NCBI GenBank assembly: GCA_013285805.1
Contig: JABDGY010000004.1
Location: 1-59,155, forward strand
Length of the DNA: 59,155 bases
From: Bacteroidota bacterium
GTDB taxonomy: Bacteria; Bacteroidota; Bacteroidia; JABEUT01
Direction of reading: 5' to 3'
The first letter of the stretch is position 1. Every line of letters begins with the position of its first letter. Below are positions 7,677 through 52,751 of the stretch, piece after piece. The notes beneath the pieces are model-generated. The model was not told where the DNA came from. It searched no databases and saw only the letters and a list, made by a program, of their open reading frames with translations. The translations under genes and the position numbers were made by a program.

Positions 7677-8978
7677 TTAATCTTTAATTATTTTCCCGGT
7701 GCTAAGCAGGCTACCATCTGCATTAAGCATACGGTAAATATATATACCACTAGCCTGGGCTGTAATATCAATGTTGGTGCGCAGTGTTGAGAAGGAGTTT
7801 ACATATACCTCTTCGCCAAGCACGTTGTACACTTCAATTTTTACATTGTGATTTTCGGTGCTTTGCTCAATGGTAAACAATCCATTTGATGGGTTAGGGT
7901 AGATGCTAATGCCATTGGCATTGCTTATTGACGCAATACCGGTAGGTGCAGTATATTCTGCAACATTGTTGGCTGAAGTACCGCCAATAGTGCTGAACAT
8001 TTCACCGCCTACATAAAGGTTACCGTTAAATACAATGGTTGAATTTATTTCACTGTACATTGGCGTAGTACCTAATGATGACCATGCGGCGCCGTTCCAG
8101 AACATTACGCTGTCGAAATAACCGCCGGCTACAATTCCGCCGTTATAGGCACACATGGCATATACGGTACTGCTGGTGCCTTTGGCTCCCACCGAATCCC
8201 ATGCCGAACCGTTCCACACAGCAATATTATTGGTGAAGATATGCGGGCCATATTTAGGGCCAACCGAAGCTGAATCGAATTCACCGCCTATATATAGGTT
8301 TGAACCCTGAGTAGCTAAAGCAAAAACGCCCCCACTACCTTTAATACCATGGCTTAACGGGGTCCATTTGGTGCCGTTATAAAGGCCTATTCCGTAAAGG
8401 GTATCGCCTGCCGAACTATAATTCATATAACCGCCAACAGCCAGTTGTCCGTTATAAACAGTCATAGCCTTGGGCCATGAATCTACTTCCACTGCAATTG
8501 AATCCCAAGTTGTTCCGTTGTATGTAATAATGTGCCCGCATTTTTTTCTCGAAGAAGCAGGGCCAATGCTATCCATCCAACCGCCGGCGTATAGCATGTG
8601 GTTATACCAGCAAAGGGCATAACAAGGGTCGTTAATTATGGCCAGTTGCTTTGATGTGGAGCCTATAAGCTGGTAAATACCGTTATCGGTAGCCACGTAA
8701 AGCACTGAATCGAAAGTGGCAAAAGCGTTTACCCCTTGCGTAATACCCGAAACAAGGCCGCTTGAATAGCTGCCGCCATTCCATACGGCTAAGTCAGAAT
8801 AAGGAGAAAAGAAGCCTCCGCCTATATATATATTACCGTTAAACACAGTCATTGCGTATACGCTTCCGCTGGTAATACCGCCACCCATAGCGGTCCATTG
8901 TGCTTTTGTATTAACTGAGAATAATAAAGCCCCGGCACACAGTAAAGTAGCCAGTGATTTAAAGTAATTTGTTTTCAT
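7677..8978 (-). CDS. Secreted beta-propeller (Kelch-like) protein with a T9SS type A CTD
   Basis: It has a signal peptide (ATLLCAGALLFSVNTKAQ). Blades recur with the pattern ..Y.GG.F....G......A.WNG..W (IAVWNGSAWDSVG, LAVWNGGSY, LYNGTKWTPL). The C-terminal CTD reads ISIYPNPSNGLFTIE..VYNVLGEEV..ASGIYIYRM. It is a paralogue of 13298..14569. Confidence 0.8.
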   Translation of the reverse strand: MKTNYFKSLATLLCAGALLFSVNTKAQWTAMGGGITSGSVYAMTVFNGNIYIGGGFFSPYSDLAVWNGGSYSSGLVSGITQGVNAFATFDSVLYVATDNGIYQLIGSTSKQLAIINDPCYALCWYNHMLYAGGWMDSIGPASSRKKCGHIITYNGTTWDSIAVEVDSWPKAMTVYNGQLAVGGYMNYSSAGDTLYGIGLYNGTKWTPLSHGIKGSGGVFALATQGSNLYIGGEFDSASVGPKYGPHIFTNNIAVWNGSAWDSVGAKGTSSTVYAMCAYNGGIVAGGYFDSVMFWNGAAWSSLGTTPMYSEINSTIVFNGNLYVGGEMFSTIGGTSANNVAEYTAPTGIASISNANGISIYPNPSNGLFTIEQSTENHNVKIEVYNVLGEEVYVNSFSTLRTNIDITAQASGIYIYRMLNADGSLLSTGKIIKD

Positions 8979-9070: not shown

Positions 9071-9169
9071 AAGGAGTAGGTAGTATTAAGTATTATGTAT
9101 TAAGATAAAGTTGAGATTCAGCTATAGTAAAAGCGCTTACCCCATTAATTCTTATTTTACTTACTCCTT
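9071..9169. repeat. Word-hairpin element (AGTATTAAG word family)
   Basis: The left arm is aaggagtaggtagtattaagtattatgtattaagat. The right arm cttattttacttactcctt is an imperfect reverse complement of the start of the left arm. Intergenic. Confidence 0.5.
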
Positions 9170-9181: not shown

Positions 9182-9883
9182 TTAATTCATTCCCAAATCG
9201 TCGAGTACTTTGGGTGGTACTTTGCCGCCATGTTGCTGGGCTTCCTTAAGGTATTTCTTGGCTTTGCTTTTATCGCCCTTCTGGTAATATGAAAGGCCAA
9301 CGTATACTTCGGCGTCGCCAACCAGGTCGGGGTTTTGTTTCTGGTAAAGCTTCATGGCTTTTTCCGCTTCGGGCAGGGCCTTATCGGGCTGATTCTTAAT
9401 CAGGTATATGCGTGCTTCGCCATAATGCCCTTCAGGGTCTTCAGGGTCAAGGTCTACATATTTGGCATATTCATCAAATGCTTCATCATATTTTTCTATC
9501 ATGCTGTAAACTACAGCCAGGTTCATGTGGGCAAGTTTACCGGTAGGCATAGTGCGGATAGATGCTTTGTAGCATAACATGGCTGAGTCTAAAATACCTA
9601 GCTGGCGGTAGCATACGCCGCAGTTATCAAGTGCATCTACATACGTAGAGTCGAGGTGAATGGCCTTGCGGTAATAGCTTACAGCTTTGCGCAGGTCGCC
9701 TTTTTCCGAGGCGCGGTAACCCAGTTCGTAATCCTTACGGGCATCGTCGTTAATTGACGATTTATACAGGCCCACCGGGGCCAGTTCTTTTACTCCTCCT
9801 GCTTTGGTGGTGTCTTTTTTCTGGGCAAACAGTATTCCGTTGCACAAAATAAGGCCTGAAATTAAAGCTGCTTTTGTTTTCAT
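9182..9883 (-). CDS. Secreted TPR-repeat protein
   Basis: It has a signal peptide (LILCNGILFAQ) and consecutive 34-aa TPR-like units (AVSYYRKAIHLDSTYVDALDNCGVCY.., AFDEYAKYVDLDPEDPEGHY..). Confidence 0.8.
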   Translation of the reverse strand: MKTKAALISGLILCNGILFAQKKDTTKAGGVKELAPVGLYKSSINDDARKDYELGYRASEKGDLRKAVSYYRKAIHLDSTYVDALDNCGVCYRQLGILDSAMLCYKASIRTMPTGKLAHMNLAVVYSMIEKYDEAFDEYAKYVDLDPEDPEGHYGEARIYLIKNQPDKALPEAEKAMKLYQKQNPDLVGDAEVYVGLSYYQKGDKSKAKKYLKEAQQHGGKVPPKVLDDLGMN

Positions 9884-9921
9884 GGTTGGTGTGGTTTACG
9901 GTTTATATTATTTGTGGAAAA

Positions 9922-10995
9922 TTATTTGGGCCAGCTATAGGCATCGTTCCATTTATAGAAATCGTCTATATCCTGCTTGTGGTCCTTAATCCACTGGGCC
10001 GCAACTTTAGCATCTGCTTCGGTGTCGCTGGAAAGATAAATAATGTATGCCAGCGTTTTTGTAAACTGCTTGTCGTGCATTTCTAAAAAGTAGGGCACAT
10101 AAAAATCCCAGTAAAAACCTTTGCCGTCTTTTTGTGTCTCCTTCAGCGATGAACACATAATATCCAATGTATTGGCCAGCTTTTCAGGCTCGGTTAATTT
10201 AGCCAGGGTGTCATTCGACATCTGCAATGCGCCCGACATGCCCAATATGAGTTCGGTCGATGAAAAATTATTCTCGGCTTTTTTACCTTTCTTATTGTCA
10301 AGGTCGGCTGGGTCAACATTAATGGTAATGGTATTGTCGCCTGTTTTTTCAGCTCCGCCAGCCGCTATTTTGCCTACATATTTAAAATCATCCGATGCGC
10401 GTTTTGAACCCGGGGACAGTACATAAAACCTGCAAAAAGCCATGAGGGAAGGCACATTATGTTTCTGCACAAGCAGTATGCGGCCCAGTGCATTCTGCGA
10501 ACCGGCATGGGCAGGGTTTAGCTTAGCCGATTTCTGGAAACATTCCAGCGATTCATCAAGCTTATCGTTGCTGGCCAGGCACACACCTTTGTTAAAATAG
10601 CATAGGTAATTATCGGGCGTGGCCTTAATGGCTTTATCGTACTCTTTAATGGCATCGTCGGGCTTATGTTGTGCATCAAGTACGTTGGCATAAGTAAGGT
10701 GCACCATTCCAATCAGTTTATCGTCTTTATGGTTTTTAATTATGTCTTTACAAAGGTCCTCGGCCTTAAAGTTTTCCCCCGAATAAAAAAGAGTTTGCGC
10801 TTTTTCGGCCATAGCTTCCACATTATCCTTGTCAATAGCAAGGGCGGCATCATACTTGGCAATAGCTCCTTTAAAATCGCCGCTGTCGGTCAGGTCGTCG
10901 CCATCCTTAATAAGTTGTGTAACCTTGCCTGCATCTTGTGCATACAGGTTGGTAGTGAACAGGCTAATACATAGCAGTAAGAGTAGTTTTTTCAT
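9922..10995 (-). CDS. Secreted TPR-repeat protein with a C-terminal uncharacterised domain
   Basis: It has a signal peptide (LLLLCISLFTTNLYAQ). N-terminal TPR units are present (AIAKYDAALAIDKDNVEA.., AIKEYDKAIKATPDNYLCYFNKGVCL.., ECFQKSAKLNPAHAGSQNALG). Confidence 0.75.
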   Translation of the reverse strand: MKKLLLLLCISLFTTNLYAQDAGKVTQLIKDGDDLTDSGDFKGAIAKYDAALAIDKDNVEAMAEKAQTLFYSGENFKAEDLCKDIIKNHKDDKLIGMVHLTYANVLDAQHKPDDAIKEYDKAIKATPDNYLCYFNKGVCLASNDKLDESLECFQKSAKLNPAHAGSQNALGRILLVQKHNVPSLMAFCRFYVLSPGSKRASDDFKYVGKIAAGGAEKTGDNTITINVDPADLDNKKGKKAENNFSSTELILGMSGALQMSNDTLAKLTEPEKLANTLDIMCSSLKETQKDGKGFYWDFYVPYFLEMHDKQFTKTLAYIIYLSSDTEADAKVAAQWIKDHKQDIDDFYKWNDAYSWPK

Positions 10996-11041: not shown

Positions 11042-13228
11042 CTATACCCGTATTCCGATTATAAGCACATCATCAACTTGTTCAAGGCTACCTTTCCATT
11101 TATCAAACTCAGTTTCTAATTCCTTTTTCTGCTCAACCATTGGCCTGTTGCTGATAGCCAGCAGCTTTTCCTGCAGTTGCTTGTATTTAAATTTTTTGCC
11201 TTTAGGCCCGCCAAACTGGTCGGCATACCCATCGGTAAACAGGTACAGTATATCGCCTTTTTTTAAACTTAATTTGTGCGTGGAAAACTGTTTAGGGTTA
11301 TCTGTTTTACCTATGGGTTGTTTATCGGGTTCCACTTCAATAATGCCTTCGCCTGCAGGAATAATCCATAATGGGTTATAGGCTCCTGCCCAGCTAATGG
11401 CTAATTGCTTTTGGCTAATAGCTACTAATGATATATCCATACCATCCTTCACTTCACTTTCACTTTTATCTCCGAATGGATCCCTATGGGAGAATGTCTC
11501 CAATACAAGTTCCCTTACTTTATCAAGTATTTTACCCGGTTCAGTAATTTTAAATTCCTTCACGGTCCTGTTCAGTGCATTTGAACAAACAACACTTACC
11601 AAAGCGCCAGGAACACCGTGGCCGGTACAGTCGCATGCTGCAATAAGAATAATCTGTTCAGGCATTTCTCCCGACGAAGAATGCCGGGATGTCGTTTCAC
11701 TCCACATCCAGTAAAAATCGCCTGCAACAATATCCTTTGGCTTATACATAACAAACGAATCGGGCAGGTAGGTTTTAATAATGTTCAAAGGCGGCAGTAT
11801 AGCATCCTGTAATCGCTTGGCGTAAATAATAGAATCGAGCACTTCCTTGTTTTTCTCTTCTACTATGGCTTTCTGCCGTTCAATAAGTTCGTTCTGCTTT
11901 TCTACTTCTTCCTTTTGTTTGCTTATTATTATTGTTTTGCGCCTGTTCTGCTGCAAACTACGTGCAATAAAAAAAGCAAAAACAATAACCAGCGCCAGTA
12001 TTCCGCTTATAAAATATATGGTTATACGCTGCTTGCGCGCCTCTACATCGTTCTTTATTTTTATCTTCTCCTCTTCAGCTCTTTGCGCATCCTGTTTTTT
12101 TTCAAACTCGTAATTCATTTCAGCCTCTACCACCTGTTTGGTATTCTCTTCATTCTTCAGGCTGTCGTGCCACTGACGGGCTTTTTCGTAGTTAGCCAGC
12201 GCGCTTTTATAATTCCCCATGCCGCTATCGGCAACTGCCATACACATATAGCCCTCTTCAATATAGTCTTTACTTCCCGATGCCAGCGACTGCATAAGTA
12301 TGGTATCGGCATATATCCTGCCTTTTGCATACTGTTTCATTAAATTATAAATGGTGGAATAGTTAATGAATACCGATTCAAGCCCCCGTTTATAGCCAAC
12401 CTTGCGTTTCAGCACCAATGATTTCCCGACATAATCAAGCGCTTCGTTGTAATTGCCCTTATCCATATATATTTCACCTATGTTGTTATAGGCAATGGCC
12501 ACACCTTCCTGGTCATCGGCCTTCTGTTCCAACTCAATAGTCTTTTTAAAATCATTCAGGGCCTCATCATAATTCTTCATTTTTACATGTATGCCTCCAA
12601 TGTTATTAAGGCTGGCTGTAATGTTGAATTTTTCTTTCACCAATACACTTATATCATAAGCCCTTTGTTCCGTTTTAAGGGCTTCAGCAAAGCGGCCCTG
12701 TTCAGAATATACATTGCCCAGGTTAACAAGGGCAGTTGTCATTCCGACAGAATCTTTCATGTCCTCGCGAATTTTAAGCGCGTTAAGGTTAGCCTGCAAT
12801 GACTGTGGCAGGTTAGCCTGGCGGAAATAAGTAAGCCCTATGCGTGTGTAAAGTGTGGCGGCCTGGCTACTGTCTTTAAGGTTGAGGGATACATTAAGGC
12901 CCATAATAAAATTGCGCAGGGCATCGGCATATTTCAACTTTGAATAGTAAACATTACCAATGCATTTAAATGCTGCAGGTTCGCCAGCCAGGTAATTGAT
13001 ACGGCCACACAGGTCAAGGGCATCAATACCATATTGCATGGCTTTATCTTTCTGGCCCGCCTTATACGTTTTGTCGCTAAGCAACGTAAGTGTGTTTACT
13101 TTGTTGCTGTCATTTTTTTCAACAGCCAGCCTTGTGGTAAGCGAATCTATTATATGTGCCAACGGGCTTTGCGCCCCGGCAATAGAACAGGTAAAAATAA
13201 AGCACACAAAAAGCACTTTGCGAAGCAT
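11042..13228 (-). CDS. TPR sensor - transmembrane - PP2C/SpoIIE-family protein phosphatase
   Basis: The protein has a signal peptide, about 8 TPR units, a coiled coil, one TM helix (ITIYFISGILALVIVFAFFIA) and a PP2C/SpoIIE domain. Domain motifs: DIVAGDFYW, CDCTGHGVPGALVS, DGMDISL, LFTDGYADQFGG, DDVLIIGIRV. It is a paralogue of 29028..31031. Confidence 0.85.
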   Translation of the reverse strand: MLRKVLFVCFIFTCSIAGAQSPLAHIIDSLTTRLAVEKNDSNKVNTLTLLSDKTYKAGQKDKAMQYGIDALDLCGRINYLAGEPAAFKCIGNVYYSKLKYADALRNFIMGLNVSLNLKDSSQAATLYTRIGLTYFRQANLPQSLQANLNALKIREDMKDSVGMTTALVNLGNVYSEQGRFAEALKTEQRAYDISVLVKEKFNITASLNNIGGIHVKMKNYDEALNDFKKTIELEQKADDQEGVAIAYNNIGEIYMDKGNYNEALDYVGKSLVLKRKVGYKRGLESVFINYSTIYNLMKQYAKGRIYADTILMQSLASGSKDYIEEGYMCMAVADSGMGNYKSALANYEKARQWHDSLKNEENTKQVVEAEMNYEFEKKQDAQRAEEEKIKIKNDVEARKQRITIYFISGILALVIVFAFFIARSLQQNRRKTIIISKQKEEVEKQNELIERQKAIVEEKNKEVLDSIIYAKRLQDAILPPLNIIKTYLPDSFVMYKPKDIVAGDFYWMWSETTSRHSSSGEMPEQIILIAACDCTGHGVPGALVSVVCSNALNRTVKEFKITEPGKILDKVRELVLETFSHRDPFGDKSESEVKDGMDISLVAISQKQLAISWAGAYNPLWIIPAGEGIIEVEPDKQPIGKTDNPKQFSTHKLSLKKGDILYLFTDGYADQFGGPKGKKFKYKQLQEKLLAISNRPMVEQKKELETEFDKWKGSLEQVDDVLIIGIRV

Positions 13229-23458: not shown

Positions 23459-23550
23459 AAGTGGGTAATTGAATTATGTGTTGAAAATAAGTGAACGTTT
23501 CCAAAAATAATAAAAAAGACCGAAAAGAGGATTATAACTACTCGTTTTGA

Positions 23551-23615
23551 GGGGGTGTTGAAAACTATATCACATTTATGTTTATTAGTAGTAAACATTG
23601 TGTTTATATTTGCAG
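23551..23615 (+). promoter_or_regulatory. Conserved 65-bp promoter-like motif, copy 1 (upstream of protease-capsid block)
   Basis: The sequence is gggggtgttgaaaactatatcacatttatgtttattagtagtaaacattgtgtttatatttgcag. It matches copy 2 (39599..39663) at 57/65 positions without gaps. It ends with TATATTTG (23605-23612), which fits the Bacteroidetes -7 consensus TAnnTTTG. A TTTA -33-like element lies 20 nt upstream of that box. Confidence 0.6.
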
Positions 23616-23623: not shown

Positions 23624-23705
23624 AGTATTAAGTACAGGGTATTAAGAATTAAGATAAAAACAACAATTCCCGCTACTTAATACTCACTACTTAATACTTG
23701 ATACT
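23624..23705. repeat. Word-hairpin in the 5' leader of the protease gene (AGTATTAAG family)
   Basis: The left arm is agtattaagtacagggtattaagaattaagat. The right arm is ctacttaatactcactacttaatacttgatact, an imperfect reverse complement. The right arm ends at the ATG of 23706. Confidence 0.6.
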
Positions 23706-24770
23706 ATGACTGCAATACCATTCAAACATTACCCGCTCGACGCTCCCGATGAGCAGTGGGATGCCAATGCCGAAGTGGCAAAGGCCAGTACCGACGATCT
23801 GCGCATTATGTGCACCTGGGACGACCCGACCAAGCCTGAACAGAAGAACAGTTACAAGCTGCCGCACCACAAAGCCGACACCTACCACACCAACCTGAAA
23901 GGTGTTATGGCGGCAGGCAATGCTATTATGGGTGCAAGGGGTGGGGTGGAGATACCTAAATACGACCTGGATGCAGTAAAGGCGCACCTACAAAAACATT
24001 ACCACGAATTTGGCCGAACGGCCCCATGGGAAAGCAAAGCGGAATGGCGGTGGTACCAAACTAAGAACACAGGCGGCAAACTGAAGGATGTTGATACTAC
24101 CGGACGTACTGTATGCGGTTACTTTGCCTCATTCAATACTAAGGACAGCGATGGAGATATGTTTGCGCCCGGCTGCTTTGCCAAAAGTATTGCCGAAAAT
24201 AAAGACCGCATTATGCACCTGTTGCAGCACAATACATTGCAACCTATTGGCAGGCCAACGGTACTGAAAGAAGATGCACAGGGATTATATTTTGAAACTC
24301 CCATAGCCAACACCCAACTGGGCGATGATGTGCTGCAACTTTACCGCGATGGTGTGTACAAAGAACACTCCGTAGGTTTTGAAATGATCAATAGTCATCC
24401 TGAGCCTGCCAGCCCCGAATCCTCGGCGGTCGAAGCCTATGTGAATGTGATTAAAGAAGCTAAGCTATGGGAAGGCTCGACGGTAACATGGGGAGCGAAT
24501 AGCAATACACCCTTTATTGGTGTAAAGACGCGAGGCATCGCGTCTCAACAAACAGCGGCAAATATCCTGGATGAGGCCCTGGAGCGCAGTACACTTATTT
24601 ATAAGCAACTGCACCGCGGCAATTTACATGATGATACTTATACACTTCTCGAAATAGAACTTAAGCAACTGCAGGCGCTTCTGGCAGCAAGGCCGTGCGA
24701 TAACACCTTGCCCGCAACTGATGATGCCGGCTTGTCGGTGCTTAGGTCAATTAATAATTTATTCAAATAA
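23706..24770 (+). CDS. HK97-family prohead (capsid maturation) protease with N- and C-terminal extensions
   Basis: The core reads GYFASFNTKDSDGDMFAPGCFAKSI..RIMHLLQHN..PIG..GLYFE..LGDDVLQLYRDGVYKEHSVGF, which matches the S78 prohead protease pattern. It lies immediately upstream of the major capsid gene. Confidence 0.85.
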   Translation: MTAIPFKHYPLDAPDEQWDANAEVAKASTDDLRIMCTWDDPTKPEQKNSYKLPHHKADTYHTNLKGVMAAGNAIMGARGGVEIPKYDLDAVKAHLQKHYHEFGRTAPWESKAEWRWYQTKNTGGKLKDVDTTGRTVCGYFASFNTKDSDGDMFAPGCFAKSIAENKDRIMHLLQHNTLQPIGRPTVLKEDAQGLYFETPIANTQLGDDVLQLYRDGVYKEHSVGFEMINSHPEPASPESSAVEAYVNVIKEAKLWEGSTVTWGANSNTPFIGVKTRGIASQQTAANILDEALERSTLIYKQLHRGNLHDDTYTLLEIELKQLQALLAARPCDNTLPATDDAGLSVLRSINNLFK

Positions 24771-24776
24771 TAGTCG

Positions 24777-24850
24777 AAAGTTCATAAAGTTATAAAGTTC
24801 ATAAAGTAAAACGGACTTTATAAACTTTACAAACTTTCAGACTTTAAAAA
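24777..24850. repeat. Word-hairpin between protease and capsid genes (AAGTTCATAAAGT family)
   Basis: The sequence aaagttcataaagttataaagttcataaagt / aaaacgg / actttataaactttacaaactttcagactt has both arms built of tandem ~10-nt words. Confidence 0.7.
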
Positions 24851-24860
24851 CTAAAGAAAC

Positions 24861-26087
24861 ATGGAAAACAAACAGGTGGATGCTATCGTAAAAGAAATAA
24901 GCGATAACATAAACACCATAAAAACAAAGGGCGAAGCGCAAGATGCGCAACTGAAAGCCCTCGACGCCAAAATAGCGGCCAACCAATGGCAGCTGGGCGA
25001 CAAATATGAAGCTCTGCGTAAGGACTTCGACCAGATGACAGCCATGCTGAAAAAAGGCAGGCTGTTTGGTACAGCCGACCGTGGCATGACCGTAAAGGAT
25101 ATGCTGATAGCGCAAAGAGAAGGGCTGGCAAGCCTTAAAAACAAAGCCGGTATACCGGTGAGCCTCTCGCTGAAAGCCTACCAGCTATTTACCAAATCGG
25201 CAGGTAATATAACAGAAGGTGGCAACTTATTAGGCACCGACCCTATTCCGCCTACAAGGCTGGCAGGCATTTATGCTGACCCCTTAAGGCCTGTGCACCT
25301 GCGCCAGTTTATGAACAGCACCGCTACCGACAGTAACCAGATTCTGTTTAACAAGCTTACCGGTGAAAACGATGGCAGCAGCACAACGGCTGAAGGAACC
25401 AGTGCTACACAAAGCGATTTTACCATTACCGCCGAAGAAGTAATTGTGCGCAAGCTCAATACCTACCTCACCATTTCAAAAGAAATGATGGAAGATGCCG
25501 ATTTTGTAGACAACTACATTAATACGCACGTGGCAGGCAGGTTGCTTATGCAGGAGGATACACAAATACTGAACGGTAACAACACCGCGCCAAACCTGCA
25601 GGGTATTAACCCCATTGCGGCAGCGTATCTTAATCCGGTTATACCCGGAGCCTCATCGAGCAGTATAAACTACTACGATGTGTTGCACCAGGCAGTAACA
25701 CAGGCACGTGTGTCTTACTACCAGCCCAATTACATAATTATTAACCCGAACGATTACAACGCGTTGGTGTTAAGTCGCGACAGCTACGGACGTTACCAGT
25801 TCCCGCAAATGATTAGCGGAGCACCGGGTACATTCTTCATCAATGGCGCGCAGGTAATTTCAAACACCACCCAGGCACAGGGCTACTTTACCGTAGGCGA
25901 TTTCCAACTGGGCGCAACCCTTGCGTATCGCGACGAAATTAACGTTACCTTCAGTAACCAGCACGTAGACAACTTTGTGAAAGGTTTCATTACCGTGCTT
26001 GTTGAAGAGCGTATAGCGAATGTTGTATACAGGCCCAATGCATTTGTATATGGCAACTTTGCACAAGCAGAAGCGAGCGGTTCATAG
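24861..26087 (+). CDS. HK97-fold major capsid protein with an N-terminal coiled-coil (delta/scaffold-like) region
   Basis: An N-terminal coiled coil of ~100 aa is followed by a typical Phage_capsid pattern (FTITAEEVIVRKLNTYLTISKEMMEDADFVDNYINTHVAGRLLMQEDTQILNG..APNLQGI..). It sits downstream of the prohead protease. Confidence 0.9.
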   Translation: MENKQVDAIVKEISDNINTIKTKGEAQDAQLKALDAKIAANQWQLGDKYEALRKDFDQMTAMLKKGRLFGTADRGMTVKDMLIAQREGLASLKNKAGIPVSLSLKAYQLFTKSAGNITEGGNLLGTDPIPPTRLAGIYADPLRPVHLRQFMNSTATDSNQILFNKLTGENDGSSTTAEGTSATQSDFTITAEEVIVRKLNTYLTISKEMMEDADFVDNYINTHVAGRLLMQEDTQILNGNNTAPNLQGINPIAAAYLNPVIPGASSSSINYYDVLHQAVTQARVSYYQPNYIIINPNDYNALVLSRDSYGRYQFPQMISGAPGTFFINGAQVISNTTQAQGYFTVGDFQLGATLAYRDEINVTFSNQHVDNFVKGFITVLVEERIANVVYRPNAFVYGNFAQAEASGS

Positions 26088-26093
26088 AACCGC

Positions 26094-26187
26094 AATTAAA
26101 AATTAAAGATTAAAAATGAAAGGTTTACGTTGTTTATAAAAATGGGGTTCTTGAATCTTTAATCCGTAATTTGTAATCTTTAATTAG
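26094..26187. repeat. Word-hairpin downstream of the capsid gene (ATTAAAGATTAAAAAT family)
   Basis: The left arm is aattaaaaattaaagattaaaaatg. The right arm, atctttaatccgtaatttgtaatctttaatt, is its imperfect reverse complement. Confidence 0.65.
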
Positions 26188-26193
26188 AAAGAC

Positions 26194-26230
26194 CCGGAGC
26201 GTAGTGTAAAAGCTGCCTCCGGTTTATTTT
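26194..26230 (+). terminator. Rho-independent terminator after the capsid gene
   Basis: The stem is ccggag (26194-26199) paired with ctccgg (26217-26222), followed by tttatttt. Confidence 0.6.
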
Positions 26231-26237
26231 ACTTGTG

Positions 26238-26285
26238 CCTGTTGAAAACTCATCTGAAATGGTAACATTCATTCTTTGTTTTTGC
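26238..26285 (+). promoter_or_regulatory. TGTTGAAAAC box plus TTTG-containing promoter-like region upstream of 26314
   Basis: The sequence gcctgttgaaaactcatctgaaatggtaacattcattctttgtttttgcc contains the exact decamer TGTTGAAAAC at 26240-26249. The same decamer occurs in the 65-bp motif copies, but the spacing to the TTTGC element here is about 12 nt shorter. Confidence 0.35.
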
Positions 26286-26313: not shown

Positions 26314-26736
26314 ATGCGCACATATAGAATAATAATACTCTTAATCTTAATAGGGTTTGTTCATAGTGGCTTTTCACAAACTGATATTCAGAAGGACACT
26401 TTAATAGAGTTGTTTACCTATAAGGGAATACCCTTGCAGAACTTTTACGGTAAAAAGGTAAAGGAGTTTATTGCAGAAGTAAAAAAAGGAAAAGATTCTA
26501 TTTCAAAATCTATAGGTTGGTATGAACCGCGTGGAAATATTATCGGGCTCAGGATTATAATAAGCGATTCGACCAGTTCATTAATGATTTATTTTAAAGA
26601 TACATTTATGTACAGGGTTCCGAAAGATATGCCCGCCTGCGATGATAAAAAAGTGGGCAATGCTGTGATAAGCAGGTTTGCCGTACGCTATAGAAAAGGA
26701 TATGTGATTGACGTCGCTCCTAAAAGCGCATGGTGA
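26314..26736 (+). CDS. Small secreted protein, unknown family (paralogue A)
   Basis: It has a signal peptide (IILLILIGFVHSGFSQ). It shares the motif FTY(K/H)G(I/V)PLQ(N/Q)FYGK with 26834..27274. Confidence 0.6.
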   Translation: MRTYRIIILLILIGFVHSGFSQTDIQKDTLIELFTYKGIPLQNFYGKKVKEFIAEVKKGKDSISKSIGWYEPRGNIIGLRIIISDSTSSLMIYFKDTFMYRVPKDMPACDDKKVGNAVISRFAVRYRKGYVIDVAPKSAW

Positions 26737-26740
26737 AACC

Positions 26741-26774
26741 ATTTAAGAATTCAGATTTAAGAATTAAGATTTAG
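26741..26774. repeat. Single word arm (TTAAGAATT/AGATTTAAG words)
   Basis: The sequence is atttaagaattcagatttaagaattaagatttag. It is a run of tandem degenerate words with no obvious partner arm. Confidence 0.45.
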
Positions 26775-27274: not shown

Positions 27275-27398
27275 TGAAGACTTTACACAAGTTCCGGTAC
27301 CGGTGTAAAAAAGTGTAAAGCAAAAATTTATTATTAATGAAACTACTATATAAATCAATTAGTAATTATTAATTAGCAATTACTAATTTTAATGGAAT

Positions 27399-27447
27399 GG
27401 GGGAGGGGGTGTATAATTGCCATTTTCCGCCAAAAACCGCCATTAAG
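27399..27447. repeat. G-box plus three 10-bp CCGCCA words
   Basis: The sequence is gggggagggggtgtataattgccattttccgccaaaaaccgccattaag. The same architecture occurs on the opposite strand at 52711..52751. The GGGAGGGGGTGT start is shared with the 5' edge of motif copy 2 (39595-39606). Confidence 0.5.
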
Positions 27448-27470: not shown

Positions 27471-27551
27471 ATCTGTGAAAATCCTGTATTATCTGTGGTG
27501 AATTGTTTTAAGAACTCACCACAGATTGCACAGATTAAAAACAACACAGAT
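27471..27551. repeat. Word-hairpin (ATCTGTG/CACAGAT family) in the leader of 27569
   Basis: A perfect 11-bp stem joins atctgtggtga (27491-27501) and tcaccacagat (27516-27526). Extra atctgtg and cacagat words flank it. Confidence 0.65.
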
Positions 27552-29027: not shown

Positions 29028-31031
29028 ATGCACTGCATTAGAGAGTTAAAAGCCTATCAAGTTTGTAAAGTTCATAAAGTTGTATTGGTCTGCTTTATAA
29101 CTTTTTGCTTTATAACCTTTCCGCTTATTGCCCAGCACCATAAAATAGATTCGCTGATGGCATTGGTGAAAAGCGATAAGGACGATACGGATAAAGTAAA
29201 CCACCTCAACGGCCTCAGCTCTTTATATAAAACATTGGGTAACCTTGATACATCAATGTATTATGTTACCAATGGCATGAAGCTTTCAAAGCAATTGAAT
29301 TTTACCCGTGGTATTGCCAAATGCTATAATATAATGGGTAACGTATATGTAGACAGGGGCGATTATCCTAATGCACTCGACAATTATTTTAAGGCTAAAA
29401 AAGTAAATGAAGATGCCGGCAATAGATCAGAGGTGGCAAAAAACCTCAGCAATATCGGCTCGGCATACAAAGGCATGGGCGATTATAAAAAGGCGCTCGA
29501 CTACGATTTCCAGGCATTGAAAATATACGAAGATATTGGAAGCGATTGGGGCATTGCCAATACCAGTGGTAATATTGGTAATATATACGACAATGAGGGT
29601 ATTTACAAAGATGCCCTGGACTATGATATGAAATCGCTGGTAATGTTCGAAAAGATAGGAGATAAAACAAGCATAGCCAGGAACACGGGCAACATAGGTA
29701 ATGTGTACGATGATTTGGGAAAATATGATGAAGCCCTTGAATATGATTTTAAATCGCTTGAAATGTATAAGGCATTAAACGATGAGCATGGAATAGCGCT
29801 AAACATTGGTAACATTGGTAATGTTTATTCTAAAACAGGGAAATACGCTGAAGCCGAAAAGTATCTTACAAGGGCAATTGCGCTTTGCGACAGCATACAT
29901 TTTTTAAGCACAGGGAAAGAATATAACCTTAGTCTTAGCAAATTATATGTGAAAACGGGGCAATGGCAAAAGGCATACAATACATATATTGTTTATACAA
30001 CTGAAAAAGATAGCCTGGTAAACCTGGAAAAAAGTAAGCAACTTGGCCGTGTTGAGGCTAAGGCCGATTATGACAAACAACTGGCGCTTCAACAGGCCGA
30101 CGATGAAAAGAAAATTGAACTGGCTAATGCAAATGCCAAGCGCGAGAAGATATTGATTGCATTTGTGGCGGCAATTGCGCTGGCTGTAACCATTATTGCG
30201 CTGATCATTTCAAGGGCTTTACAGGTAACACGCAGGCAGAAAACAACTATAGAAATAAAAAGTAAAGAGATAAACGACAGTATTGCATACGCAAAACGAT
30301 TGCAGGATGCTATTTTGCCGCCAGTGGGCCTTATTGAAAAACACCTTTCGGAATCATTTGTGTTGTACAAGCCAAAAGATATAGTGGCCGGCGATTTTTA
30401 CTGGCTGGAAAGAGTGGGCGATAAGATACTTATTGCGGCCGCCGATTGTACCGGACATGGTGTACCCGGTGCATTGGTTAGCGTGGTTTGCTCAAATGTA
30501 TTAAACAGGGCGGTGAATGAATTTCATTTAACCGAGCCTGGGAAAATATTAGATAAAGCAAGGGAGTTATTGCTGGATACTTTTTCCCAAAGGGATACAT
30601 TCGGGGAAAAAAGCGCAGGCGATATAATGGATGGTATGGACATATCTCTCGTCGCTATTAGCCTTCAGCCATTAACTGTTAGTTGGAGCGGGGCATATAA
30701 CCCATTGTGGTATATACAAGCCGGAGAAATGAAAGAGATTACGGCTGATAAACAACCGGTAGGTAAATATGAGGCAAGCAGGCCATTTACTACAACTACT
30801 CTTAATTTAAATAAGGGCGATATATTGTACCTGTTTACCGACGGCTATGCCGACCAGTTTGGCGGCCCGAAGGGAAAGAAATTTAAGTATAAGCAGTTCC
30901 AGGAAAAGCTATTGGCCATTAGCCAAAAACCATTAGCTGAACAAGCAAGGTTACTGAACGAAACATTTGAAAACTGGAAAGGAAAAAATGAGCAGACAGA
31001 TGATGTTTGTATAATAGGAGTGAGGGTGTAA
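29028..31031 (+). CDS. TPR sensor - transmembrane - PP2C/SpoIIE-family protein phosphatase
   Basis: It has the same architecture as 11042..13228. The phosphatase domain is about 70% identical by eye (DIVAGDFYW, ADCTGHGVPGALVSVVCSN, DGMDISLVAIS, LFTDGYADQFGGPKGKKFKYKQ, DDVCIIGVRV). Confidence 0.85.
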   Translation: MHCIRELKAYQVCKVHKVVLVCFITFCFITFPLIAQHHKIDSLMALVKSDKDDTDKVNHLNGLSSLYKTLGNLDTSMYYVTNGMKLSKQLNFTRGIAKCYNIMGNVYVDRGDYPNALDNYFKAKKVNEDAGNRSEVAKNLSNIGSAYKGMGDYKKALDYDFQALKIYEDIGSDWGIANTSGNIGNIYDNEGIYKDALDYDMKSLVMFEKIGDKTSIARNTGNIGNVYDDLGKYDEALEYDFKSLEMYKALNDEHGIALNIGNIGNVYSKTGKYAEAEKYLTRAIALCDSIHFLSTGKEYNLSLSKLYVKTGQWQKAYNTYIVYTTEKDSLVNLEKSKQLGRVEAKADYDKQLALQQADDEKKIELANANAKREKILIAFVAAIALAVTIIALIISRALQVTRRQKTTIEIKSKEINDSIAYAKRLQDAILPPVGLIEKHLSESFVLYKPKDIVAGDFYWLERVGDKILIAAADCTGHGVPGALVSVVCSNVLNRAVNEFHLTEPGKILDKARELLLDTFSQRDTFGEKSAGDIMDGMDISLVAISLQPLTVSWSGAYNPLWYIQAGEMKEITADKQPVGKYEASRPFTTTTLNLNKGDILYLFTDGYADQFGGPKGKKFKYKQFQEKLLAISQKPLAEQARLLNETFENWKGKNEQTDDVCIIGVRV

Positions 31032-31039
31032 ATAAGTAA

Positions 31040-31164
31040 GAGTTGAGAATTAGGAATTAAAAATTAAAAACCTGGTCAAGAAAGTATTTCCCGGGTCTTA
31101 TATCCCAAGGCTTAAACCGTAACATTAAATCTTAAATCTCATTTCTTAAATCCTAAATTTAATG
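31040..31164. repeat. Word-hairpin downstream of 29028..31031 (AATTAAAAATT / TTAAATCTTAAAT words)
   Basis: The left arm is gagttgagaattaggaattaaaaattaaaaacc. The right arm is cattaaatcttaaatctcatttcttaaatcctaaatttaatg. Complementarity between them is imperfect. Confidence 0.5.
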
Positions 31165-35708: not shown

Positions 35709-35805
35709 AGTTTATAAAGGCTGTAAAGTTCAATAAGTCGGAAATTGCCGTTATACAATTGCGTCGTTACTTTATAAACTTTCTGCTTTAAGAACTTTAC
35801 AGACT
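35709..35805. repeat. Word-hairpin (AAGTTCATAAAGT family) between divergent genes
   Basis: The left arm is agtttataaaggctgtaaagttcaataagt. The right arm is tactttataaactttctgctttaagaactttacagact. Confidence 0.6.
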
Positions 35806-35847
35806 GAAAATATTCCTACATTTAACCTACCCTAAAGAATTACAGGA

Positions 35848-36837: not shown

Positions 36838-36994
36838 TAGTAACTATTGGGTATTAAGTATTAGGACGGTGGAAATTTCCTATAAAATAAAATAGTGTTT
36901 ACAAATTTTTAAGCTGATTTTCAGTACGTTTTTAAGGCGGTTGAAAAATAGTGGGTGAAATACTTGACAACGGCTCCTTCATACTATAGATTAG

Positions 36995-37230: not shown

Positions 37231-37296
37231 ATTTGATAATTTGATGATGTGCCAATTTGATAATGGACCAAACTTGAATTATCAAATCATCAAATT
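37231..37296. repeat. Word-hairpin (ATTTGATAAT/ATCAAATCATCAAAT family)
   Basis: The sequence is atttgataatttgatgatgtgccaatttgataatggaccaaacttgaattatcaaatcatcaaatt. It abuts the stop codon of 37297..38052. Confidence 0.6.
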
Positions 37297-38052
37297 CTAA
37301 TAAGCAATATTCGGGGTCATTTTGCCGAAGGTGTAAACAAGGCTGCCGGTGAGGTTGCCGTAAAACAGAACCGAGCGCATGTAAATTACCTGGTTACTTA
37401 CCGAATTATTATCAATCGCGCTCATAGTGGTATGATATTCAAATTCTGCAATAAGCATATCGGCATTGGCCATTAAAGCCCAATGATTTGAAAGTATATA
37501 GCCAAGCCCTATTCCGGGGCCAAAGCCCAAAGCAGCCGTATTAGCCCTGTATATGGTTTCCGATATTGTATTTGCAGGCGGATAAGTACTATATGAATAG
37601 TTTATGTCGCTTTGGTTCAAAAAAACAGGGCCAAACATAATCCGTAGCTCTATAGCAAATGGGGTAGTGCGCTGCGGCAGTTTTATATTGAGTCCCGTCA
37701 TGAAGTAATATACATGGTATATATTCACCCCGCTTGCCTGGTAAGGGTAATTACTGCTGTCTCCGTAAAACCCCAGGTATTGCGATATGTTGAACTTAGG
37801 GGATAGGTAACCTGCTACAAATGGTATTCCGAAATAAGTCGACTTTAAAGCCAGCAAGCCCGATAATGAAAATTCAGGAGTGTTTTCGCCCCAGAAAGGG
37901 TAAGCGTATTTGGTGTTTGAGGCAGGGCGCAGGTTTATACCATACCCGGCATTTACCGATACGAATGAATGCATATAATGAACGGTATCTTTCTGCGCGC
38001 TGGTAAAGCGCAGGCCTAAAACGAACATTAGTATAGTTAACCGGTATTTCAT
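37297..38052 (-). CDS. Outer-membrane beta-barrel protein, unknown family
   Basis: It has a signal peptide (MKYRLTILMFVLGLRFTSAQ) and Y/G/N-rich alternating strands. The C-terminal strand reads LTGSLVYTFG. The start is taken at the internal MKYR; the ORF track extends to 38082. Confidence 0.6.
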   Translation of the reverse strand: MKYRLTILMFVLGLRFTSAQKDTVHYMHSFVSVNAGYGINLRPASNTKYAYPFWGENTPEFSLSGLLALKSTYFGIPFVAGYLSPKFNISQYLGFYGDSSNYPYQASGVNIYHVYYFMTGLNIKLPQRTTPFAIELRIMFGPVFLNQSDINYSYSTYPPANTISETIYRANTAALGFGPGIGLGYILSNHWALMANADMLIAEFEYHTTMSAIDNNSVSNQVIYMRSVLFYGNLTGSLVYTFGKMTPNIAY

Positions 38053-38084: not shown

Positions 38085-38119
38085 GTAGTATTAAGTACTA
38101 AGTATTAGGTATTAAGTGG
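38085..38119. repeat. Single word arm (AGTATTAAGTA family)
   Basis: The sequence is agtagtattaagtactaagtattaggtattaagtgg: four tandem degenerate words. Confidence 0.5.
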
Positions 38120-39506: not shown

Positions 39507-39598
39507 CGAGGATTAATCTCCGCTTACAAAGTATTTCGTAATCCTGCCAATTGCCCGCCGCTCTTACTTCTTACATATTACTTTTTACTTCATAGGGA

Positions 39599-39663
39599 GG
39601 GGGTGTTGAAAACTATATCACTATTTTGTTTAATAATATTAAACAATGTGTTTATATTTGCAT
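39599..39663 (+). promoter_or_regulatory. Conserved 65-bp promoter-like motif, copy 2 (upstream of connector-to-chaperone block)
   Basis: The sequence is gggggtgttgaaaactatatcactattttgtttaataatattaaacaatgtgtttatatttgcat. It is 57/65 identical to copy 1 with no gaps. The TATATTTG -7 box lies at 39653-39660. Confidence 0.6.
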
Positions 39664-39670: not shown

Positions 39671-39760
39671 AATTTGATAATTCGGCCATTTGGTTATTTG
39701 ATGATGAAAGCAGTATAATCTGACAATTATCAAATTACCAAATCATCAAATTACCAAATT
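39671..39760. repeat. Word-hairpin in the 5' leader of the connector gene (ATTTGATAAT family)
   Basis: The left arm is aatttgataattcggccatttggttatttgatgatg. The right arm is aattatcaaattaccaaatcatcaaattaccaaatt. About 27 of 36 positions are complementary. Confidence 0.65.
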
Positions 39761-40394: not shown

Positions 40395-40480
40395 GATGAA
40401 TTATGAATGATGAGTTATAAGTGACAAAAAAACTGTATGTCAATTCATAAATCTTAATTCATAATTCTTAAATCTTAAAT
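40395..40480. repeat. Word-hairpin between connector and head-closure genes (GAATTATGAAT / AATTCATAA family)
   Basis: The left arm gatgaattatgaatgatgagttataagtgac and the right arm aattcataaatcttaattcataattcttaaatcttaaat are imperfect complements. Confidence 0.55.
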
Positions 40481-40485
40481 GGAAC

Positions 40486-40826: not shown

Positions 40827-40857
40827 TTAATTAAGAATTAAAAATTAAAGATTAAAA
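40827..40857. repeat. Single word arm (ATTAAAGATTAAAAAT family)
   Basis: The sequence is ttaattaagaattaaaaattaaagattaaaa. It fills the whole 33-nt spacer between two phage genes. Confidence 0.5.
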
Positions 40858-41280
40858 ATGTTTTCATTGAAGATAGAAGGAGTGGATGATTTGTTGAATA
40901 AGTATCAACAGGCAACAGATGCATTAGCAGAGCAAGTAAAGGTGGCTGTGGCAGAAACAGCAGAGACTATAGCCGATAATGCAAGGCAAAATTGTAGGGG
41001 AAAACTTAAAGATTCTATTGCAGTAAATATAGCTGATGACAGGATGAGTGCAGTAATAAGCGCAGACCACCCGGATGCAGCCTTTATAGAATACGGTGTT
41101 AGAATTCCTGAAATACATACGAAAGATGCAAAGACATTACACTGGAAAGAAGATGGCAAGGATGTCTTTGCGAAATCGGCAAAAGGACATGAAATGGCCC
41201 CACGGCCCTTTATGAATCCTGCATTTGAAGAAAATGCACAAAAATTACTAGATACCTTAAGCGATATTACAGGACAATGA
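40858..41280 (+). CDS. HK97 gp10-like tail/neck component
   Basis: It is 140 aa, with GKLKDSI.., AAFIEYGV.. and APRPFMNPAFEEN as in HK97-gp10_like proteins. Confidence 0.7.
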   Translation: MFSLKIEGVDDLLNKYQQATDALAEQVKVAVAETAETIADNARQNCRGKLKDSIAVNIADDRMSAVISADHPDAAFIEYGVRIPEIHTKDAKTLHWKEDGKDVFAKSAKGHEMAPRPFMNPAFEENAQKLLDTLSDITGQ

Positions 41281-41723
41281 AAGACTCAAGCAAAATAATA
41301 CGTACTGCATACTATAACGCATTGAATAATGTGGTGCAGTTTAACTCAGCCGGTGTGCCGCTATACGATTCGGTGCCATCGAACGCAGCATACCCTTACA
41401 TATATGTGTCAGATTACACTGCAGTTGAAGAAACTACAAAAGACTTCTTCGGGCAGAATGTAACTATAACGCTGGTTGTCGCCATGAAGTACCCGGCCAA
41501 CTATGGCGGGCAGAATGATATTGATGGCATTGTAAGCCAGGTAACAGGTATTGTACGTGGCACCATAACCACATCGCAACCACTTTCATTCACGCCCGAT
41601 TTTCAAAACATAATAACACAGGTTGACCAATCGAACTACTTTAAACAGGAAGTGGCCGATGGCATTGTATATTACAGAACAATAAAATTCAGGCACCGCA
41701 TTACACAAATAACGAATGGATAA
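41277..41723 (+). CDS. Tail terminator/completion-like protein (DUF3168-like)
   Basis: It overlaps the upstream stop by 4 nt. The pattern ..VPLYDSVPSNAAYPYIYVSDYT.. resembles the vYd.vP....PYv motif of DUF3168. It lies immediately before the tube gene. Confidence 0.6.
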   Translation: MKDSSKIIRTAYYNALNNVVQFNSAGVPLYDSVPSNAAYPYIYVSDYTAVEETTKDFFGQNVTITLVVAMKYPANYGGQNDIDGIVSQVTGIVRGTITTSQPLSFTPDFQNIITQVDQSNYFKQEVADGIVYYRTIKFRHRITQITNG

Positions 41724-41757
41724 CTTTCAACTTTATAAACTTTACAAACTTTAAACT
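41722..41757. repeat. Single word arm (ACTTTATAAACTT family)
   Basis: The sequence is aactttcaactttataaactttacaaactttaaact. It lies in the spacer between two tail genes. Confidence 0.5.
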
Positions 41758-49959: not shown

Positions 49960-50060
49960 AAAGTTCATAAAGTTTATAAAGTCTAAAGGTTGCGGAGATT
50001 GAGTGTATTAAATAGTAGTGGTAACTTTTAGCTTTAAGAACTTTAGAAACTTTACAAACT
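49960..50060. repeat. Word-hairpin (AAGTTCATAAAGT family) between convergent genes
   Basis: The left arm is aaagttcataaagtttataaagtctaaaggt. The right arm is aacttttagctttaagaactttagaaactttacaaact. Confidence 0.65.
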
Positions 50061-52554: not shown

Positions 52555-52710
52555 ATTGAATGGTGGTTGTTAGTTAGTAAATGGTGGTTATTCTTTAGGG
52601 TAAGGAGTAAGCCGGTATCATATAATTGAGGCACTTTTTGCATTTTTATCTATTCCCTCTGTATCCCTATCTGGTATTAGTTTACAGCCGGTAATTCCTG
52701 TTTTTATAAT

Positions 52711-52751
52711 GGCGGTAATTGGCGGTAGATGGCGGTTATCGCCCCTCCCCC
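52711..52751. repeat. Three 10-bp GGCGGTA words plus a C-box (reverse-strand copy of the 27399 element)
   Basis: The sequence is ggcggtaatt ggcggtagat ggcggttatc gcccctccccc. Its reverse complement, gggggaggggcgataaccgccatctaccgccaattaccgcc, parallels 27399..27447. Confidence 0.5.

Follow-up and report, generated by a model that had tools for sequence, protein, structure and literature searches.

Tandem-word hairpins in the spacers of the window

We examined an intercistronic element at positions 24777–24852 of a 59,155-nucleotide stretch of DNA (hereafter the window), which is chromosomal DNA of an uncultured Bacteroidetes with a GC content of 41%. Its nearest relatives are metagenome-assembled genomes named "Bacteroidetes/Bacteroidia bacterium" and soil-metagenome contigs. 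The genes of the window include many for type IX secretion cargo, TPR-SpoIIE proteins, and outer-membrane proteins, and spacers make up 11.6% of its length. Bacteroidetes-type −7 boxes (TAnnTTTG) lie upstream of window genes; their total count is not enriched, and only gene-adjacent boxes are interpreted here. Scans of the window for sigma-70 promoters and terminators gave counts close to shuffle expectation and are uninformative for a Bacteroidetes. No tRNA or tmRNA genes were found in the window, and Rfam at gathering thresholds returned no match over its whole length.

The element starts 6 nt past the stop codon of a prohead protease gene and ends 8 nt ahead of the ATG of a capsid gene. Tandem Repeats Finder (TRF) resolves it into 3.6 copies of AAAGTTCAT at 24777–24807, a 7-nt loop, and 4.3 copies of ACTTTACAA at 24815–24852, of which the final ~20 nt are unpaired. 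RNA folding gives −20.7 kcal/mol (z = −5.9) for the plus strand and −24.6 kcal/mol (z = −6.7) for the minus strand. These arms and folds agree with the hairpin of tandem words that a preliminary description had read at this position.

Arrays of this kind are far more frequent in the spacers than chance allows. The window holds 29 intergenic tandem arrays, which cover 935 of 6888 bp, versus 2.73 ± 1.62 (maximum 8) in 200 dinucleotide shuffles of the window spacers; 20 tandem arrays are spread over its 52 kb of coding DNA. Inverted repeats scoring at least 11 with loops of at most 100 nt number 13 in the intergenic DNA, compared with 0.62 ± 0.80 (maximum 4) in 100 shuffles and 0.37 in equal-sized coding segments, and 10 of 13 folded elements reach z ≤ −3 on at least one strand. 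The preliminary description had named parity with shuffled intergenic DNA as the outcome that would speak against the family, and both counts show an excess instead. Its view that one architecture recurs with differing words is borne out, as is its remark that the elements adjoin phage-like and host genes alike. The word-hairpin feature is real, clade-wide, and statistically overwhelming.

The comparative set consisted of 21 non-identical sequences, the window and 20 further loci (designated in the form L008 where they must be told apart). In this set, 137 of the 218 intergenic TRF arrays have a period of 7. Period-7 words in the window include AGTATTA, AATTAAA, TTAAGAA, AATTAGT, and ATGAATT; minority periods are 8 (ATTTGATA), 9 (AAAGTTCAT), and 10 (AATGGCGGTA). 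The 8–11-nt words first proposed are thus mostly heptamers or heptamer pairs, and the suggested ~10-bp period, with its appeal to helical phase or curvature, gives way to a dominant period of 7 nt. Head-to-tail 7-nt units and an excess in noncoding DNA (29 arrays in 6.9 kb) are the marks of short tandemly repeated repetitive (STRR) sequences. We assign the elements with high confidence to intergenic heptanucleotide simple-sequence-repeat (SSR) arrays and hairpins as a class, and such arrays extend across one whole clade of soil Bacteroidetes.

The word sets are also less unrelated than they had at first appeared. Rotated to a common register, 166 heptamer consensus words follow the template T-T/G-A-n-n-A-n (consensus TTAAGAA), with an information content of 3.36 bits versus 2.59 ± 0.05 in letter-shuffled words. 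Identical arms occur at distant loci: an exact 25-mer is shared by 26094–26118 and 40836–40860, and an exact 23-mer by 24815–24837 and 41730–41752, where the similarity runs on to the ATG. Several further inter-locus arm matches span 35–39 nt at 86–90% identity. It is single arms that recur, not whole hairpins, and the loops of hairpins built from the same words (24777, 35709, 49960, and one in L002) are unrelated. The same word families recur, though in other slots, in genomes with capsid identity as low as 52%. A tail-tube leader array in L019 was rejected as an orthologue because the same word family occupies a different slot there. Purity of the arms for a three-letter alphabet (65% versus 9% in random segments) was dropped as a separate feature, since by our own estimate a repeated AT-rich heptamer is pure about half the time.

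Position, polarity, and replacement of the arrays

About half of the arrays are paired as cognate inverted arms, with a G-containing arm, a loop of ~30 nt, and a C-containing arm in that order. Stems have a GC content of ~20% (arm GC 0.20), a median arm of 19 nt, and a median loop of 30 nt. With loops of this length, cruciform extrusion from duplex DNA is improbable; the folding species would therefore be RNA or single-stranded DNA, and the word hairpin is probably not a duplex cruciform.

The arrays show a marked polarity. The left end of spacers is the place of G-containing, C-poor arrays and the right end that of C-containing, G-poor ones (36/12 vs 17/44, Fisher p = 1.1e-6), and AT-rich inverted repeats run G-arm then C-arm in 26 cases and C-arm first in 2. 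Within 30 nt past a stop codon there are 31 sense-G versus 8 sense-C arrays, whereas within 30 nt ahead of a start codon there are 31 sense-C versus 4 sense-G arrays. Paired stems start a median of 12 nt past the stop codon (27 of 42 within 20 nt) and end a median of 114 nt from the start codon, indicating that paired hairpins track stop codons rather than start codons and that gene orientation governs where they lie. Start codons occur 0.7 times per 100 nt in C-type arrays versus 6.8 in G-type arrays, and TAA is enriched in the C-type orientation (61% vs 39 ± 3%). Positions −20 to −1 of genes in the surveyed loci are G-poor and A-rich even when arrays are masked, in agreement with the translation-initiation region of Flavobacterium johnsoniae, which from −20 to +20 is rich in A and has little structure (PMC6847099). 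The idea that the post-stop arm provides stop codons in all frames was dropped: 86% of G-type words contain a stop codon versus 84% expected from composition.

Comparison of orthologous spacers, as the preliminary description had proposed, reveals a hairpin that is kept while its words change. A word hairpin directly follows the capsid stop codon in 13 of 17 distinct genomes, in about nine word sets (AATTAAA, GTGAAAA, AAAGTTCAT, AATTAGG, ATTTAAG, AATTTTG, AACGATG/AACTATA, AGTTATG, and GATGACGCT). The remaining slots hold GC-rich palindromic elements in two genomes, a composite of blocks resembling repetitive extragenic palindromic (REP) sequences in one, and a terminator alone in one. When the outer 14 nt of each arm are aligned for 12 orthologous hairpins, 90.5% of cells pair, versus 50.2% after partners are shuffled among genomes, and all 14 pairs have changed on both sides. 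The arms had been preselected by the inverted-repeat search, and the partner-shuffle control is the informative part of this comparison. Cognate arms score 12.9 versus 6.3 for non-cognate arms.

The genes of L019 and L020 are 96–97% identical, and entirely different cassettes occupy at least five of their shared spacers. Up to the capsid end, L023 matches the window at ~92% identity, and in the terminator at ~95%; a different word hairpin stands between the two, and the place of the window's CACAGAT hairpin (27471) is taken in L023 by a GC-rich REP-like element. L008 and the window are 87% identical in coding DNA, ~98% in the arms, and ~50% in the loop. Arm similarity is therefore off the phylogeny, the window matching L008 and not the closer L023. 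In these comparisons, turnover is very rapid and cuts across phylogeny.

Other repeats and small structures occupy the same spacers. GC-rich palindromic repeat families are found in spacers of L001, L002, L005, L008, L010, L012, L018, L020, and L023, with examples such as GAGATTGCYTCGYKCCTCGCAATGAC, AGATTCTTCGCTTCACTCAGAATGAC, GGGCGTTCCCC...GGGTCGGGCTTTACGCTRCAAGTCCTCGC, and GTCATGCTGAACTYGTTTCAGCATC; they sit in the same slots as word hairpins (e.g., L005 ~9850–10000 and L020 17850–18010). None was seen in the window sequence that was read or among the window repeat families. A 51-nt tandem duplication polymorphism in a AAAGTTCAT-family spacer distinguishes L019 (18339–18390) from L020, strains that are ~95% identical, and shows duplication of larger units besides word-level repeats. 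Immediately upstream of the capsid word hairpin, the last capsid codons and stop (window 26077–26093) form a small GC hairpin, GCGGTTC-ATA-GAACCGC, which is kept in orthologues (L001–L024) through paired changes (TCAGGCTC-TTAA-GAGCCTGA, TCTGGCTC-GTAA-GAGCCAGA, and CCGGTTC-GTA-GAACCGG). Beyond the word hairpin and ahead of the following gene, ~100–170 nt past the capsid stop, most of these relatives carry a conserved block TTTTCATGGTTGGTTTGGCCGGG...CCGGCTTTTTT that includes a terminator preceded by a conserved motif and is orthologous to window ~26186–26240; the window and L008 have AGAAAGACCCGGAGCG... in its place.

Relation to known repeats and possible role

The closest relatives of these elements are the GGGAATC arrays of Xanthomonas, and they are of the same general kind as the cyanobacterial STRR and the TAACTGA arrays of Beggiatoaceae. 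Rehm et al. (2015, PMC4692102) described the Xanthomonas GGGAATC and Nostoc GGGGA(C/T)T heptamer arrays, which sit nearer the 5′-neighboring open reading frame (ORF) and which in Xanthomonas include 70–75 cases per genome of two convergent arrays able to form stem-loops. The arrays described here resemble them as intergenic tandem heptamers with convergent inverted pairs and in following the same positional rule at stops and starts (31 vs 8 and 31 vs 4); in both, length and sequence vary widely between close species, and no function is known (PMC4692102). Xanthomonas, from another phylum, uses one G-rich word with G-quadruplex potential and a four-unit preference, whereas the present arrays are AT-rich and comprise dozens of word variants, and none of 165 intergenic arrays has G-quadruplex potential (at least four GGG or CCC runs). 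Polarity and pairing cannot depend on G-quadruplexes, because AT-rich arrays that lack this potential share them.

TAACTGA heptamers have been reported from Beggiatoaceae, cyanobacteria, and five Bacteroidetes (MacGregor 2015, PMC4679880). As here, these direct repeats keep a fixed orientation with their ends a few nucleotides ahead of start codons, and reversed cases are occasionally met just past a stop; they place stop codons in all three frames, and strain differences are indels in 7-nt steps (PMC4679880). Spacers of Flexibacter, Gramella, and Aequorivita also hold other heptamer repeats (PMC4679880). The TAACTGA system uses one word, with inverted pairs almost absent (one case), whereas many words occur here and roughly half of the arrays are paired. 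No tandem TAACTGA doublet was found in the window or any locus, and the window contains only 4 singletons. For long bacterial SSRs of 5–11 nt, polymerase slippage has been given as the cause of a heptamer bias (Mrazek 2007, as cited in PMC4679880 and PMC4692102), and STRR were described in cyanobacteria (Mazel 1990, as cited in PMC4692102 and PMC4679880). In the form in which this literature is summarized there, it shares with the present arrays a heptamer bias, intergenic enrichment, lineage-specific abundance, and a proposed slippage origin, and contains no description of cognate inverted arms, stop/start polarity, or slot-wise turnover.

The elements also recall REP sequences, bacterial interspersed mosaic elements (BIMEs), and REP doublets forming hairpins (REPINs), which are likewise intergenic hairpins, are frequent past stops and between convergent or co-directional genes, vary by strain, and are thought to stabilize upstream mRNA. 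A REP unit is a 20–40-nt imperfect palindrome headed by a conserved GTAG or CGTC, and the copies in one genome are highly conserved (PMC3733652). The arms here are non-palindromic tandem arrays around long, unrelated loops, and neither GTAG nor CGTC heads were seen at arm ends on reading the sequences. No gene for a REP-associated tyrosine transposase (RAYT) or other transposase was detected among the 50 window ORFs scanned with Pfam. Conserved internal sequence, the mark of MITEs (miniature inverted-repeat transposable elements), is likewise missing, the loop being ~50% identical between the window and L008 and the arms ~98%. Inspection of the boundaries revealed no target-site duplications, although the AT-rich flanks make short ones hard to exclude. 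The preliminary description was right in setting the family apart from REP, BIME, and MITE families.

The over-representation of heptamer tandem repeats in bacteria has been noted since 1990–2007, and to our knowledge no function or mechanism has been accepted for them. Heptamer arrays in Xanthomonas and Nostoc have been interpreted through G-quadruplex formation. The present case adds many AT-rich words on one template, an absence of G-quadruplex potential, frequent hairpin pairing, and slot-wise replacement. Arrays incapable of forming quadruplexes separate the positional rule from the quadruplex idea and provide a natural comparison set. Because slots turn over very quickly, the same spacer carrying a different hairpin in near-identical strains, selection on structure is open to a direct test, and Shine-Dalgarno-independent translation in Bacteroidetes makes leader structure especially important. 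For annotation, the arrays mark gene ends and may mislead ORF callers, RNA-motif searches, and assemblers.

With a confidence that falls somewhat short of even, and from sequence comparison, we favor a reading in which repeats driven by slippage and copying act as sequence-independent mRNA punctuation. Slippage in 7-nt steps during replication would make and remodel the arrays, and arm sequences would be copied between paired arms and between loci; together, these processes would explain the complementary arms, the identical 23–25-nt arms at unrelated loci, and the word-set changes between near-identical strains. Transcribed hairpins could then serve as punctuation regardless of their sequence, and hence be tolerated or kept. 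At 5′ ends, between cistrons, and past stop codons, they may shield mRNA segments from exonucleases and separate cistrons. A G-poor array beside a start codon would offer a weakly structured leader free of start codons, suiting the Shine-Dalgarno-independent ribosomes of Bacteroidetes. The earlier suggestion of an RNA stabilizer fits the position of the stems, at a median of 12 nt past the stop.

Several observations weigh against this reading. A predicted −7 box lies downstream of the array at 38085, and likewise of that at 52515, so that both arrays may be outside the transcript of the gene concerned. In small samples, the sense strand shows no bias toward G-U over A-C mismatches (13 vs 15), and sense and antisense folding energies are alike (Wilcoxon p = 0.99). 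L008 keeps the 66-nt promoter and the protease gene but not the leader hairpin found at 23624 in the window, which makes the hairpin dispensable at this one site. No 7-nt step indels were seen in two near-identical pairs, L006 and L015 or L007 and L017 (10 kb and 4.6 kb compared), and strains that are 96–97% identical differ by whole-cassette replacement, not by step changes. Strand purity is mostly a by-product of repeating one AT-rich heptamer. Finally, relatives have GC-rich REP-like elements in these slots, a pattern compatible with either an indifference to which hairpin fills the slot or a hot spot of insertion.

The main rival, which we regard as doubtful, treats the arrays as selfish or neutral dispersed repeats: small nonautonomous elements (arms or whole hairpins) with no function of their own, spread by ectopic gene conversion or by REPIN- or MITE-like transposition of single-stranded hairpins, that accumulate at gene ends since insertion there harms little. 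Exact 23–25-nt arms and 35–39-nt matches (86–90%) at unrelated loci are what such spread would leave behind, as are the same word families in different slots of genomes with 52% identical capsids and whole-cassette replacement in the same spacers of the 96–97% identical strains and the 92% pair. The departure of arm similarity from phylogeny (the window matching L008 and not the closer L023), the REP-like repeats in shared slots, the lack of G-U strand bias, and the hairpin missing from one orthologous leader point the same way. However, unrelated loops and the recurrence of single arms are not the pattern of whole-element transposition, neither target-site duplications (by boundary inspection) nor a transposase (among the 50 ORFs scanned) came to light, and the 5–14-nt spacing from stops, together with one slot filled in 13 of 17 genomes, exceeds what passive tolerance would give. 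A general heptamer-array rule that operates without G-quadruplexes and is common to Xanthomonas, Nostoc, and this clade is, in our estimate, unlikely. It would place the G-strand past stops, the C-strand before starts, and the G-arm always ahead of the C-arm in hairpins, under a constraint that is conserved and tied to expression. Any transcript that enters the spacer might, for example, make the G-arm first, so that Rho never meets the C-rich, G-poor arm as an exposed loading site, and the start-adjacent arm would be free of start codons. Gene ends would then have "slots" that must hold some hairpin and are quickly refilled from a genome-wide pool of interchangeable cassettes.

It is improbable that the arrays are periodic protein-binding sites, in which a single-strand RNA binder (ribosomal protein S1, a cold-shock-domain protein, or another oligomeric binder) or a DNA binder reads TTAnnAn / nTnnTAA every 7 nt while the partner arm masks or unmasks the site. 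A template common to otherwise different words and the enrichment of TAA in the C-type orientation (61% vs 39 ± 3%) would suit such a protein, and the arrays abut starts like Beggiatoaceae TAACTGA, for which S1, Csp, or CsrA binding has been proposed (PMC4679880); a role of S1 in Bacteroidetes initiation has also been proposed (PMC6847099). The template, however, is low in information, with about four semi-conserved positions, periods of 8, 9, and 10 also exist, arrays are equally present past stop codons and in convergent spacers, and no candidate protein was identified. Terminators or attenuators that work without a U-tract, AT-rich hairpins that stop or pause RNA polymerase, are very unlikely to account for the family. 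Hairpins do start a median of 12 nt past stops and fill convergent spacers from stop to stop (49960, 37231), and most lack a U-tract, as first noted: a T-tract follows AT-rich hairpins in only 1 of 45 cases on the plus strand and 3 of 45 on the minus strand. Yet the GC-rich stem, short loop, and U-tract of intrinsic terminators are not those of word hairpins, whose ~20% GC stems and 30-nt loops are weak for termination. Word hairpins are not stand-alone terminators, because some lie directly past promoters (23624, 39671), between cistrons of the phage-like operons (24777, 40396), or ahead of a canonical terminator, a GC hairpin with a T-run, that stands beyond the capsid hairpin in the window and most relatives. 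Ordinary canonical terminators are also used elsewhere in the window, and a constitutive U-tract-independent terminator, one of the roles first suggested, is thus unlikely. Helically phased curved DNA, or a phased protein-binding site on the duplex, is barely credible: the A/T-rich words do contain short A-tracts, but a period of 7 bp, not ~10.5, puts them out of helical phase, and cognate inverted arms would have no role.

Inventory of sites and neighboring features

Most of the sites first listed proved to be as described (Table 1). Two arms are present at 9071, 23624, 24777, 26094, 27471, 31040 (weak, 19/24), 35709, 37231, 39671, 40395, 49960, and 52912, and single arms at 26741, 38085, 40827, and 41722, as had been stated; the array at 52514 is likewise single-armed, and that at 36850, with only ~2 words, is marginal. 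No local hairpin is formed by the CCGCCA sites at 27417 and 52711, which belong to a composite module of ~85 nt present in two inverted copies 25 kb apart (27362–27445 and the reverse complement of 52707–52793). Each copy faces a downstream gene and combines an AATTAGT-type array with a GGGGGAGGGG run and with 10-mers of the CCGCCA type.

Table 1. Word arrays, word hairpins, and phage-like gene blocks of the window
Positions	Strand	Feature	Evidence	Context
9071–9169		word hairpin AGTATTA/AGGAGTA	inverted repeat 9071–9082/9158–9169, 11/12; TRF AGTATTA 9082–9104; fold −23.5 kcal/mol, z = −2.6	past stop of minus-strand gene 9182–9883, upstream of promoter of gene 7677–8978
23624–23705	+	5′-leader hairpin AGTATTA / TACTTAA	inverted repeat 23624–46/23676–98, 20/23; z = −5.7	begins 12 nt after TATATTTG −7 box (23605–23612), ends 7 nt before prohead-protease ATG
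23706–26087		phage-like block 1		protease 23706; capsid 24861
24777–24852	+	intercistronic hairpin AAAGTTCAT / ACTTTACAA, period 9	TRF; inverted repeat; fold	between protease and capsid genes
26094–26185	+	hairpin AATTAAA / TCTTTAA	inverted repeat 26101–17/26169–85, 16/17	6 nt past capsid stop; followed by canonical terminator at 26195–26240
26741–26773	+	single G-type array ATTTAAG/AATTAAG	TRF period 7/14, score 59; 89% complementary to 40448–40482	4 nt past stop of gene 26314–26736
27357–27388		small self-folding array AATTAGT/AATTACT	inverted repeat 11/11; z = −3.8/−5.3	part of composite upstream module 27362–27445, homologous to reverse complement of 52707–52793
27471–27551	+	leader hairpin ATCTGTG / CACAGAT	fold −27.0 kcal/mol, z = −5.1	ends 17 nt before ATG 27569
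29059–29126	+	word hairpin of AAAGTTCAT family inside coding sequence	matches 41728–51 and 24815–36; fold −17.5 kcal/mol	signal peptide of TPR-SpoIIE gene
31037–31162		weak hairpin AATTAGG/AATTAAA ... TTAAATC	inverted repeat 19/24; TRF 31055–70, 31125–62; z = −2.2	convergent spacer, past stop of gene 29028–31031
35709–35812		hairpin of AAAGTTCAT family	inverted repeat 35718–31/35792–805, 13/14; family D16	divergent spacer
36850–36865	+	short G-type array GGTATTAAGTATTAGG, ~2 words	families D9/D14; no partner arm found	13 nt past asparaginase stop
37231–37295		hairpin ATTTGATA / AATCATCA, period 8	inverted repeat 16/18; z = −3.0 both strands	ends 1 nt before stop of minus-strand gene 37297–38052, directly beyond terminator of plus-strand gene
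38085–38117		single AGTATTA array	TRF score 48	C-type on minus strand; abuts −7 box (38087–38080) of gene 37297–38052
39671–39760	+	5′-leader hairpin ATTTGATA / AATTACCA	inverted repeat 17/18; z = −5.1	begins ~10 nt after −7 box of second 66-nt promoter copy (duplicate D12), ends 23 nt before connector-gene ATG
39784–~46900		phage-like block 2		connector 39784; head completion 40486; gp10-like 40858; tail tube 41766; GH108 lysozyme 46386
40396–40480	+	intercistronic hairpin ATGAATT / AATTCAT, TAAATCT	inverted repeat 18/21; z = −3.3/−4.5	from 3 nt past stop to 5 nt before following ATG
40829–40859	+	single AATTAAA/AATTAAG array	TRF score 48	fills entire 33-nt spacer; last word ends in ATG of gp10-like gene
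41722–41753	+	single C-type array AACTTTACA	TRF	leader of tail-tube gene (ATG 41766)
49960–50060		hairpin of AAAGTTCAT family	inverted repeat 18/21; fold −29.3 kcal/mol, z = −5.3	fills convergent spacer, stop codon to stop codon
52515–52598		ATTTAAG array, then 21-nt-period AATGGTGGTT array	TRF; 90% complementary to 40442–40480	C-type on minus strand; abuts −7 box 52514–52507 of gene 51763–52497
52708–52736		AATGGCGGTA x2.9 array	TRF; no local hairpin	inverted copy of CCGCCA words 27417–27440
52917–52953		small hairpin GTAAAAAGTA ...	inverted repeat 14/16; z = −4.8/−3.8	10 nt past stop of minus-strand gene 52964–55192

Host-type genes occupy the 13 kb between the two blocks, which hold phage-like genes for head and tail; neither an integrase nor replication genes are seen in the window. 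The capsid is kept at 52–95% amino-acid identity across many genomes (loci L001–L025), on very long chromosomal contigs of up to 628 kb, and gene order is partly kept (L019). Rather than a prophage, these genes may represent a domesticated particle cluster that resembles a gene-transfer agent.

A 66-nt element occurs twice in the window at 89% identity, at 23549–23614 upstream of the protease–capsid block and at 39597–39662 upstream of the connector–tail block, and is also kept in L008. It reads GAGGGGGTGTTGAAAACTATATC...GTTTAnnnnnnnTAAAC...TATATTTGCA and holds a palindrome and a Bacteroidetes −7 box. By its sequence, the element looks like a shared regulated promoter of the phage-like genes. 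Part of it, GAGGGGGTGT, has a third occurrence at 27403–27412, upstream of the gene at 27569.

The instance at 29059–29126, an addition to the sites first listed, is a word hairpin within, or recruited into, coding sequence. Here, the N-terminal signal peptide of the TPR-SpoIIE protein is encoded by AAAGTTCAT-family words (KVHKV ... CFITFCFITF) with a period of 15 nt, or five codons, and alignment with the paralogue starts from residue 15. The paralogous TPR-SpoIIE phosphatase genes, at 11042–13228 (minus strand) and 29028–31031 (plus strand), are inverted and lie ~18 kb apart; they share 41% amino-acid identity, with 72–80% nucleotide identity in patches.

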